This document shows, piece after piece, positions 40,360-41,792 of a DNA stretch of 64,000 nt. The notes under the pieces were generated by a model. It was not told where the DNA came from. It saw nothing but the letters and a program-made list of their open reading frames with translations, and did not search any database. The position numbers and the translations under genes were made by a program. This DNA comes from TPA_inf: Saccharomyces (taxonomy: Eukaryota): NCBI GenBank assembly GCA_000146045.2, contig BK006947.3, positions 704,001 to 768,000 on the forward strand, given 5' to 3'. Every line of letters begins with the position of its first letter. The stretch's first letter is position 1.

Positions 40360-41343
40360 CTAACACCTTTTTTTCCTGAGCCAAATAAGCGGTGGAATTG
40401 AAACAGCTACCAAAATCATACCAAATCCAACCGCAATTGAAAGCCCCAATCTTGTGCCATAAAGAGCTGCTAATACAATCGGTGCCACCAGTTTACCAAT
40501 CCCAGAGATTGCTCCAATTGAAGGCATCAACTGGACCTTGAGTTTGGGGTCGATGTACATGGAAAAAAGGGCTGGAATGCTCGAAGCCAAAAAGTTGTAC
40601 CCTAACAATGTAATCGACATCCCAGCTGAAAAAAATATACCAGAATTTGTGGGTGGCATTGATTTATGCTTCAAGGCTTCGGATGCTCCAATCATAAAAG
40701 CTTGTCCCAGCAATGAAACAAACAATGCAAAGATGGACAGAAAAACTTGACCGCTGTACAGCGAATCTTTTTTCTTTACCTCAACGGTCTCACTTCCAGT
40801 TGTATCTGACTCTTCTAATCCGCCATCTTTGGCTCTGCCGCAGGAGCACCCGACGTTTATTAACTTTGGAGCGAAATAGCTTCCAGTCACACCAAGTATA
40901 GATGCGACCATAAACGCTATGCCTTGAAACTTGGTGTCCCAGTTAACGTGGAGCGTCAGGAATAGTGGCATAAAATAAACTACTTCGCTCATAATAAATG
41001 ACGATAGGAACATGCTCCATAGTAAAATCAAGCAGGAGATGAGTTTTTTTCTTTCGACTCTAAAAAATTGTTTCAGAGCACTGAAAAGGCTATTTTCCGA
41101 ATTTGTAACTTTAACCTCAGGATTTTCCAGAACGACAACTAATAAAAGGCATACTGCAAGAATTATGAAACTGGAGGCAAATGTCGGTGCATTGTAAGAG
41201 GCAATGCGATACCCTTTAATTTTAAAATCGCAATATCCAAAAAATATGACAATTAATTGTGCCAACGCCATGAAGATACCAGCCGCTGCTCGATAAATTG
41301 ATAGAAGCTTGAAAACGATACCCCTATCTTGTGCAATTGACAT
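40360..41343 (-). CDS. PUL3: Putative MFS-type permease, the uptake component of the pulcherrimin cluster. This is the reference-length 327-aa model from the first in-frame ATG. The frame is open for 79 more codons upstream; see the extended model in the findings.
   Basis: ATG at 41343 (MSIAQDRG...). The same frame continues upstream to 41580 with TM helices and an MFS motif-A-like GGRIICGAASASG but no ATG. Confidence 0.7.
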   Translation of the reverse strand: MSIAQDRGIVFKLLSIYRAAAGIFMALAQLIVIFFGYCDFKIKGYRIASYNAPTFASSFIILAVCLLLVVVLENPEVKVTNSENSLFSALKQFFRVERKKLISCLILLWSMFLSSFIMSEVVYFMPLFLTLHVNWDTKFQGIAFMVASILGVTGSYFAPKLINVGCSCGRAKDGGLEESDTTGSETVEVKKKDSLYSGQVFLSIFALFVSLLGQAFMIGASEALKHKSMPPTNSGIFFSAGMSITLLGYNFLASSIPALFSMYIDPKLKVQLMPSIGAISGIGKLVAPIVLAALYGTRLGLSIAVGFGMILVAVSIPPLIWLRKKRC

Positions 41344-41607
41344 GATGTAACTGAACACTATAGCACCAGAAGCAGATGCTGCACCACATATAATACGCCC
41401 ACCGAGAAGGGTGTTTAGCGACACTGCACCGCCGCATGAATACAAAAAATTACCCACAAAGGATAAAAAGTAAAGCCCCACTATTACCCATTTAATGGAC
41501 CCAAGAAAAGCAGCAATATCCCCAATAATGAATGAAACAAAAACTTGAACTGCTGCAGAAATGGCTTGAATTCTGAACAAGAATTTGTCCGGATTGGTTT
41601 CTCCGTT

Positions 41608-41792
41608 CTCTAAATTGTTAGCATACTAGTTCATTGAAATTATCTTAGATTTACATTAACACTTACTTCTTTGATGTAGTCAACCACACTTGAGAGATAT
41701 ACACAGGAGTCGAAACTGAATTGGACAGCTATCAAAATTACAGCCAAGTATTTCAAAAACATGTGTTTCTTGACACCTAAGATTTTTTTCAT
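41608..41792 (-). other. PUL3: Candidate unannotated 5' exon (41792..41667, 42 codons, MKKILGVKKHMFLKYLAVILIAVQFSFDSCVYLSSVVDYIKE) plus a 59-nt intron (41666..41608: GTAAGT...TGCTAAC...TAGAG) that joins in frame to the PUL3 N-terminal extension.
   Basis: All elements read directly on the minus strand: ATG preceded by an in-frame TAA; GAA|GTAAGT 5' splice site; TGCTAAC branch-like box 48 nt downstream; AG|AAC junction that restores the downstream frame. Confidence 0.4.

Follow-up and report, generated by a model that had tools for sequence, protein, structure and literature searches.

PUL3 (YNR062C), the pulcherrimin-iron transporter gene of Saccharomyces cerevisiae, lies on the minus strand of the DNA analysed here, a 64-kb window of GenBank contig BK006947.3 (positions 704,001 to 768,000 of the forward strand) whose own numbering is used for all coordinates. 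Our analysis indicates that PUL3 is very probably a two-exon gene, in which a 59-nt intron is spliced to a GAG/AAC acceptor and which encodes a 457-aa transporter of the major facilitator superfamily (MFS) with twelve transmembrane helices (TM1 to TM12). Comparison with related yeasts strongly supports this gene model including the exact junction, and from it we infer that splicing takes place in S. cerevisiae itself and that it occurs at GAG rather than at a UAG two nucleotides upstream. Judged by its sequence, the PUL3 intron is an ordinary spliceosomal intron that was missed in the reference annotation.

A two-exon model for PUL3

The original prediction, made without database searches, had considered a reading frame of 327 aa starting with an ATG at 41343 too short for a permease and had proposed an additional upstream exon. 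This frame is identical to S288C Pul3p as deposited in RefSeq (NP_014460.3) and UniProt (P53748), which places the window on an S288C-type chromosome XIV around YNR062C, and the 327-aa reference protein would indeed begin inside TM4 and retain only TM5 to TM12 of the 12-helix MFS fold. The elements named for the upstream exon, i.e., an ATG at 41792 preceded three codons earlier by TAA, a 42-codon open reading frame (ORF) ending in GAA/GTAAGT, the branch box TGCTAAC and the tandem acceptor TAGAG, are all present on the minus strand. The features of the locus are as follows:

41904..41911, minus strand: TATA-like box TATAAAAG, found by a regular-expression search of the PUL3-PUL4 intergenic region, 119 nt upstream of the exon-1 ATG; putative promoter element
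41792-41790, minus strand: start codon ATG of exon 1, with an in-frame TAA at 41801-41799
41667..41792, minus strand: coding part of exon 1, 42 codons, MKKILGVKKHMFLKYLAVILIAVQFSFDSCVYLSSVVDYIKE, last codon GAA; encodes TM1 and is conserved in nine other yeasts
41608..41666, minus strand: predicted spliceosomal intron, 59 nt, phase 0, GTAAGT...TGCTAAC...TAGAG, recognised by its signals and by its position in orthologs
41661..41666, minus strand: 5' splice site GTAAGT, directly after codon 42
41640..41642, minus strand: TAA closing the exon-1 frame inside the intron, eight codons past exon 1
41626..41628, minus strand: TAG in the exon-2 frame, also part of the CTAG acceptor of 463-aa GenBank models
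41617..41623, minus strand: branch box TGCTAAC with branch A at 41618, 48 nt from the 5' splice site and 10 nt from the acceptor G
3' of the branch box, minus strand: stretch AATTTAGAG, in which TAG (41612-41610) overlaps GAG (41610-41608); AAC GGA comes next
41610..41612, minus strand: upstream TAG, specific to S. cerevisiae, 8 nt from branch A; splicing here would shift the frame
41608..41610, minus strand: predicted productive 3' splice site GAG/AAC; orthologs have a conserved AAG, CAG or TAG acceptor here
40360..41607, minus strand: exon 2, 415 codons plus stop, encoding TM2 to TM12; the reference annotation leaves out its first 88 codons
41341..41343, minus strand: start ATG of the 327-aa reference model, codon 131 of the full protein

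Three junctions can be predicted for spliced transcripts:

ACATCAAAGAA joined to AACGGAGAAACC: productive junction, fits the 457-aa model
ACATCAAAGAA joined to AGAACGGAGAAACC: junction at the UAG acceptor, fits the frame-shifted alternative
ACATCAAAGAA joined to TATGCTAACAAT: junction of the 463-aa GenBank models

An unspliced mRNA would encode only a 50-aa peptide. When the 59 nt from 41666 to 41608 are removed in silico, both frames are united in phase 0 and the 457-aa product is obtained as foreseen, while use of the first AG (TAG) as acceptor leads, also as foreseen, to a shifted frame with a stop after about 47 more codons. GAG/AAC is the sole acceptor that preserves both the frame and a gap-free alignment to the intronless gene of Kluyveromyces lactis. 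Ribosomal frameshifting was rejected as an explanation in its simple form: the exon-1 and exon-2 ORFs have no overlap and stops lie between them, and because the exon-2 frame is closed by TAG 41628-41626, simple frameshifting cannot join them.

Some details of the original prediction had to be revised. Upstream of Met131, the exon-2 frame extends over 94 open codons and not over 79, which is the count to a TTG, and the in-frame stop that closes it is TAG 41628-41626, the TAG beside the acceptor being out of the exon-2 frame. Of the spacings, the 48 nt from the 5' splice site to branch A were right, but by the usual convention branch A and acceptor G are 10 and not 11 nt apart. The pair of AGs had been recognised correctly, but not that the productive acceptor of the pair, GAG, would be of the weakest type. 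Finally, GGRIICGAASASG, described as motif-A-like, falls on the fourth helix of the structural model and would by this position rather resemble MFS motif B.

Expression of PUL3 can be pictured as follows. Transcription would start upstream of 41792, probably downstream of TATAAAAG at 41911, and translation would begin at ATG 41792; between 42089 and 41792, i.e., over approximately 300 nt upstream of this codon, there is no further ATG. The spliceosome would then remove 41666-41608 by way of GUAAGU, UGCUAAC and GAG/AAC 10 nt past branch A, such that exon 1 with TM1 would be joined in phase 0 to exon 2 with TM2 to TM12. Iron-responsive elements of the Aft1 type (TGCACCC) were sought in the PUL3-PUL4 intergenic region and none was found.

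Conservation of the predicted intron and of the encoded transporter

The PUL3 loci of S. cerevisiae, S. paradoxus, S. eubayanus and S. kudriavzevii were compared in a DNA alignment. Amino acid identity to S. cerevisiae over exon 1 amounts to 100% in S. paradoxus, 74% in S. eubayanus and 81% in S. kudriavzevii. The donor is GTAAGT in all of these species except S. eubayanus (GTAGGT), the branch box reads TGCTAAC in S. cerevisiae and S. paradoxus, TACTAAT in S. eubayanus and CACTAAC in S. kudriavzevii, and an AG/AAY acceptor occupies one and the same alignment column, 10 nt past branch A, in all four. With intron lengths of 59 nt in S. cerevisiae, 58 nt in S. paradoxus, 57 nt in S. eubayanus and 58 nt in S. 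kudriavzevii, the genomic frame offset between the exons varies from species to species. Unspliced reading runs into a stop in each of the four, and splicing alone yields a single ORF in each. Given these species-specific offsets and the stops, only splicing reconciles exon 1 with exon 2.

For codon positions 1, 2 and 3, the substitutions among the four species number 25:27:89 in exon 1 as a whole (6:6:63 within its codons 15-42) and 54:40:212 in the 88-codon extension of exon 2, a pattern that we read as the signature of translated sequence under purifying selection. Not only the three sister species but also six other S. cerevisiae strains retain exon 1, the GT 5' splice site, the branch box and AG/AAY; in these strains the DNA over exon 1 and the intron is identical to that of S288C, even though their GenBank gene models differ. 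No strain was encountered in which an in-frame ATG replaces the splice signals: these are kept, and the reference ATG is ACG or ACA there. The public PUL3 models of the three sister species are all N-terminally truncated. That of S. paradoxus (L001) starts at an ATG inside the intron (MIKNGETDP), those of S. eubayanus (L002) and of K. phaffii GS115 (P0009) start at MQAVSA, and that of S. kudriavzevii (L003) starts further in.

A protein search retrieved full-length relatives of 456-472 aa from K. lactis (Pul3p), K. dobzhanskii, Komagataella pastoris, Lachancea quebecensis and Metschnikowia pulcherrima. These orthologs align to the 457-aa model without a gap over exon 1 and the junction. Exon 1 matches them nearly residue for residue (YLAVxLIAVQFSFDSCVYLSSV..YI.), and at the junction E/NGETNP is aligned gap-free to K. 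lactis E-CGSDDP. The N-terminal colinearity to be expected of a correct model was thus found in the K. lactis, Komagataella and Metschnikowia proteins alike, across the GAA/AAC junction. K. lactis Pul3p, which is among the best non-Saccharomyces matches of the 457-aa model, shares 63% identity with it over 99% of its length (E 4e-184) and is colinear from the first helix to the C-terminus. The two genes differ in that K. lactis PUL3 is a single uninterrupted ORF of 1383 nt (460 aa) that lacks the intron, whereas the S. cerevisiae gene requires the removal of 59 nt. The intronless K. lactis gene therefore serves as a natural "cDNA" for the junction.

In other yeasts, introns are present at the homologous position:

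Komagataella pastoris (BA75_00810T0, 456 aa): annotated 54-nt intron, AAC/GTGAGT...TACTAACAGTTGAAG/AGC, branch box TACTAAC, at the homologous codon boundary
Metschnikowia pulcherrima: annotated 64-nt intron, 5' splice site GTATGT, branch box AACTAAC, acceptor context ATAG
Lachancea quebecensis: 54 nt, 5' splice site GTGAGT, branch box TACTTAC (tentative), acceptor context TCAG
Yeast contig P0008, from sequencing-run assemblies: 58 nt, 5' splice site GTAAGT, branch box AACTAAC, acceptor context AAAG
Yeast contig P0010, from sequencing-run assemblies: 56 nt, 5' splice site GTAAGT, branch box TATTAAC, acceptor context ACAG

In each of these deeper orthologs the intron is in phase 0 and follows the codon aligned to Glu42 of S. 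cerevisiae. Across eight orthologs the donors at the homologous position are GTAAGT, GTAGGT, GTGAGT or GTATGT, and in every ortholog the acceptor is located 9-10 nt past a recognisable branch A. Komagataella and Metschnikowia thus resemble S. cerevisiae in having (annotated) introns at the homologous phase-0 position with the same tight spacing of 9-10 nt. They differ in their 5' splice sites (GTGAGT and GTATGT, respectively), in their branch boxes (the consensus TACTAAC in the former, AACTAAC in the latter) and in their acceptors, which are AAG or TAG and have no competing AG at a usable distance. For L. quebecensis, the deposited model (L008) assumes an intron of 45 nt that adds three residues; it is probably wrong, as an intron of 54 nt restores colinearity. 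From its occurrence at the same position in Komagataella and Metschnikowia through to Saccharomyces, the PUL3 intron appears to be ancient and to have been lost precisely in Kluyveromyces.

The predicted protein was also assessed at the level of family and fold. The 457-aa sequence matches MFS_1 (PF07690) with 41 bits (gathering cut-off, 33.4 bits), residues 56-292 corresponding to profile positions 38-262. As the match begins at profile position 38, one N-terminal helix is expected upstream of it, exactly where exon 1 lies; the original prediction had named such colinearity with MFS profiles as a check, and all the comparative checks it suggested turned out in its favour. Hydropathy of the 457-aa model fits an arrangement of 6+6 helices. 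With 24 aligned relatives as input, AlphaFold modelled the 463-aa strain variant P0001 at a pTM of 0.81 and a mean pLDDT of 80.9, its helices being consistent with 6+6. In this model exon-1 residues 2-28 form the first helix, in agreement with the hydrophobic helix originally noticed in exon 1, and pLDDT is 80-90 over residues 11-30; the lowest confidence coincides with the six extra residues of the 463-aa variant. Foldseek aligned the model over its full length to 12-TM MFS structures with a probability of 1.00 and TM-scores of 0.6-0.8. Sequence and model together strongly support the view that the 457-aa product would be a 12-helix MFS transporter orthologous to K. lactis Pul3.

Pulcherriminic acid is made by PUL1 and PUL2 in some Kluyveromyces and Metschnikowia yeasts, while production in S. 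cerevisiae needed the introduction of PUL1 and PUL2 from K. lactis or Metschnikowia, and S. cerevisiae has been termed a PUL3-carrying "cheater" (PMC12342472). The same article, which credits the description of K. lactis PUL3 as an MFS-type transporter gene to Krause et al. (2018), reports that deletion of pul3 in an S288C background raises sensitivity to producers of pulcherriminic acid and that K. lactis PUL3 complements the defect (PMC12342472). The phenotype and its complementation imply that the S288C locus makes a working transporter and that at least some mRNA is in frame, which would require the GAG site.

Acceptor choice and alternative gene models

Several observations weigh against the proposed model and are considered together here. 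First, all three PUL3 splice signals deviate from consensus and the combination is not rarer than expected by chance. When the window was searched for GTA[AT]GT, NRCTAAC and AG in this order, 9 triples were obtained compared with 9.2 +/- 3.2 in Markov shuffles, and 2 short triples (<=100 nt) compared with 1.1. The signals were hence rejected as stand-alone evidence; the significance of the PUL3 intron derives from its phase, its homology and its conservation across species. Second, the acceptor is unusual. Among the standard introns in the accessible part of Table S1 of Talkish et al. (2019), the acceptor is TAG in 156, CAG in 126 and AAG in 15 cases and GAG in none, contacts with Prp8 favour a pyrimidine at position -3, the consensus being YAG (PMC11585973), and the UAG located 2 nt upstream of GAG could compete. 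Third, polymorphism within the species looks rather relaxed, with 11 codons differing synonymously and 11 non-synonymously among four haplotypes, which hints at some relaxation in what is a small sample.

Fourth, searches for the spliced product or a published intron were negative. The exact 457-aa protein, which would be encoded by S288C and seven other strains, is absent from a collection of 15 billion proteins, and a query with the N-terminal 123 aa retrieved no spliced S. cerevisiae fragment from the same collection. A scan of metagenome contigs for the three candidate junctions gave no match, a result that carries no weight, as only one genomic contig in that collection covers the locus. 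YNR062C was not found by gene name, nearby coordinates or intron sequence in the searchable parts of the supplements of Talkish et al. (2019), nor is a YNR062C intron contained in bioRxiv 515163 or in the list of Hooks et al. (2014; PMC4202332), and a "Core gene set" re-examination from 2025, which puts the number of annotated nuclear introns in S288C at 285, cites YNR062C and notes no intron. None of the PUL3 papers that we found mentions an intron or a truncation, no paper describing a YNR062C/PUL3 intron was found, and a full-text literature search for the intron sequence gave no match.

How the PUL3 intron relates to known yeast introns deserves a closer look. An intron of 59 nt is short for yeast. 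Like the standard introns of S. cerevisiae (about 285-300 are annotated), it is of the GT-AG type, lies near the 5' end of its gene, has a branch box with a CTAAC core, is conserved throughout Saccharomyces and is needed for the ORF. It differs from them in that GUAAGU and UGCUAAC are off consensus, in the acceptor GAG (0 of about 297 in the part of Table S1 of Talkish et al. that was accessible) and in the spacing between branch and acceptor, which is 10 nt instead of the 11-60 nt found in most yeast introns and below the distances (12 nt or more) that depend on Slu7 and Prp18 (PMC11585973). It belongs, in other words, to a short-spacing class. Alternative sites of SEC14 and TAN1 are recorded as being used in vivo at a spacing of 10 nt (Talkish et al. 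2019; Table S2), and these authors asked for a branch box more than 45 nt from the 5' splice site and more than 7 nt from the 3' splice site. Measured against their definition of a standard intron, GTAAGT has the G1, U2 and G5 of a GUAUGU-like donor, the branch box is 48 nt from the donor and 10 nt from the acceptor, and conservation extends to three related Saccharomyces species and to more distant yeasts; the 3' splice site has the AG but, being GAG in S. cerevisiae, is neither YAG nor AAG. Their pipeline discarded GAG-acceptor junctions, which, together with low expression, would account for the absence of the intron from catalogues of this kind. Comparable introns that had been overlooked in the S. 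cerevisiae annotation and came to light through comparison or RNA-seq are the second intron of HOP2 and those of FES1 and YMR147W/YMR148W, where a short and a long ORF likewise proved to be one gene with a small conserved intron that was revealed by alignment of orthologs (Hooks et al. 2014; PMC4202332). Those cases are supported by RNA and published, whereas the PUL3 intron is not in their list and is known here from sequence.

The origin of the unusual acceptor can be traced in the alignment. At position -3 of the conserved acceptor there is a G in S. cerevisiae and an A in the three sister species, and this single A-to-G change both turns an AAG acceptor into GAG and creates the UAG two bases upstream. 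All seven S. cerevisiae strains in the alignment carry the TAG. This leads to the alternative that fares best, namely that the intron is real but that S. cerevisiae splices it poorly, or mostly or only at UAG 41612-41610, in which case the majority of transcripts would be out of frame and non-productive and PUL3 would be weakened, decaying or throttled by splicing. Apart from the restriction of the change to S. cerevisiae and its presence in 7/7 strains, the lack of GAG among the roughly 297 standard introns accessible and the preference for YAG (PMC11585973) speak for such a scenario, as do the 8 nt between branch A and UAG, which are within the range accepted by Talkish et al. (>7 nt), the frame-shifted or shortened alleles of some strains and a within-species pN/pS of about one third. 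Against it stands the clear phenotype of the pul3 deletion in the S288C background (PMC12342472), which demands some productive mRNA. Moreover, 8 nt are below the 11-60 nt of most yeast introns, the spacing in orthologs is always 9-10 nt, and none of the aligned strains has a disrupted coding sequence. On balance we regard this alternative as unlikely, albeit not negligibly so.

If splicing does proceed to GAG/AAC as proposed, a further idea may be put forward tentatively and with slightly more confidence than the preceding one: PUL3 could stand alone among native yeast genes in relying, for its productive mRNA, on a GAG acceptor that lies just 10 nt from the branch and competes with a frame-shifting UAG (UAGAG), its output being set, and perhaps regulated, by acceptor choice during the second step of splicing. 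Were this the case, the choice at 10-nt spacing would be expected to be independent of Slu7 and Prp18, and the GAG acceptor would account for the silence of catalogues that discard GAG junctions.

The remaining alternatives concern gene models that have been deposited. The original prediction took exon 1 to be unannotated, which is correct as far as the S288C reference is concerned; in GenBank, the annotations of other strains do contain it, with a different and probably wrong 3' junction. These strain annotations fall into a cluster of 214 members together with the 457-aa protein. Many of them are 463-aa models that combine exon 1 with a 41-nt intron ending in CTAG, which adds YANNLE; others have 450, 453 or 435 aa or consist of the 50-aa exon-1 ORF alone. 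As the DNA of six such strains is identical to that of S288C over exon 1 and the intron, the disagreement stems from annotation pipelines and not from sequence. Exon 1 has thus been partly anticipated by automatic annotation of strains, while the 457-aa junction was found neither in the literature nor among the proteins searched.

The 463-aa model, with its acceptor at 41629-41626 and the junction GAA/TATGCTAAC, is in frame and is carried by 7 of the 15 listed members of the cluster of 214. Nevertheless, we consider it very improbable. The six inserted residues occur in no ortholog, including the intronless one of K. lactis, the conserved branch box would become coding, and an intron of 41 nt leaves no workable place for a branch site, for which Talkish et al. 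demanded more than 45 nt from the 5' splice site. Furthermore, CTAG is replaced by CTGA in S. eubayanus and CTAA in S. kudriavzevii, and identical DNA has also been given models of 450, 453 and 435 aa, which points to choices made by pipelines.

Even less credible is that the reference is right, i.e., that there is no intron, that translation starts at ATG 41343 and yields an 8-helix protein of 327 aa, and that the upstream similarity is a decayed remnant. This is the current RefSeq and UniProt model for S288C, and no published evidence for splicing was found. However, among the sequences examined, codon 131 is ATG only in those of the S288C type; all 13 other S. cerevisiae strain sequences spanning this codon read ACG or ACA (Thr), and orthologs likewise have Thr. 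In addition, the 130 upstream codons evolve as coding sequence and would, according to the structural model, supply the TM1 to TM4 that the fold needs, and the exon-1 ATG is the first AUG downstream of the TATA box. The reference model would accordingly rest on a minor Thr-to-Met allele, and the 327-aa protein appears to be an artefact of picking the first ATG of a long ORF. Least likely of all is another 5' splice site, either GTATAT at 41702-41697 (435-aa models) or A/GTGTGG (450-aa models): such models have been deposited and GTATAT resembles the consensus GTATGT, but both donors delete all or part of VYLSSVVDYIKE, which is conserved in all orthologs including the intronless one of K. lactis, GTATAT lacks the G5 that is prominent in standard yeast 5' splice sites (Talkish et al. 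2019), and the 450-aa model requires the UAG acceptor as well as a non-conserved donor.

Two further observations on strain variation are added here. Asn47 (AAT) is Asp (GAT) in most other strains examined, with Asn also present in at least one (P0043). Two sequences in or neighbouring the PUL3 cluster are incomplete, P0013 (310 aa, ending ...GIFFFSWDVDYIV...) because of a C-terminal frameshift and P0033 in that only a C-terminal ORF of 217 aa is left; they may represent loss-of-function alleles or assembly errors.

Genomic context and consequences of the revised model

PUL3 is flanked upstream by a divergently oriented gene:

42943..44766, plus strand: gene for a Zn2Cys6 transcription factor at the position of PUL4/YNR063W, with matches to Zn_clus and Fungal_trans

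A divergent Zn2Cys6 neighbour of the PUL4 type is also found in S. paradoxus, S. eubayanus, S. kudriavzevii and Komagataella. The downstream neighbour at 38881-39540 (minus strand, 219 aa, position of YNR061C) gave a MARVEL match of 30.3 bits, with the Pfam cut-off at 32.8; its S. eubayanus ortholog is on record as a member of the MARVEL family. Elsewhere in the window, the second short splice-signal triple is located at 63734-63830 on the minus strand (GTAAGT...AACTAAC...AG, 97 nt) and fits chance expectation. A 529-nt intron with consensus signals, GCA/GTATGT...TACTAAC...AAGTAG/GCA, is found at 17774-18302 on the minus strand between ORFs 18294-19157 and 17120-17752; by its position it is most likely the known intron of NOG2 (YNR053C).

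The genome of S288C is the most curated eukaryotic genome, to which conserved coding introns are only rarely added. With the proposed model, the reference annotates PUL3 130 aa too short and leaves the RefSeq and UniProt proteins without TM1 to TM4. Clones of the annotated ORF would then be expected to be non-functional and N-terminal tags on it to be misplaced, homology, topology and structure resources would inherit a shortened protein, and work on pulcherrimin "cheaters" or production hosts (PMC12342472) should make use of the 457-aa cDNA. The error is not confined to S. cerevisiae but recurs in the truncated models of S. paradoxus, S. eubayanus, S. kudriavzevii and K. phaffii GS115, and the models of L. 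quebecensis and of many S. cerevisiae strains appear to be mis-spliced. Beyond annotation, the tight, conserved spacing between branch and acceptor and the GAG/UAG tandem would make PUL3 a natural substrate for studies of 3' splice-site choice.

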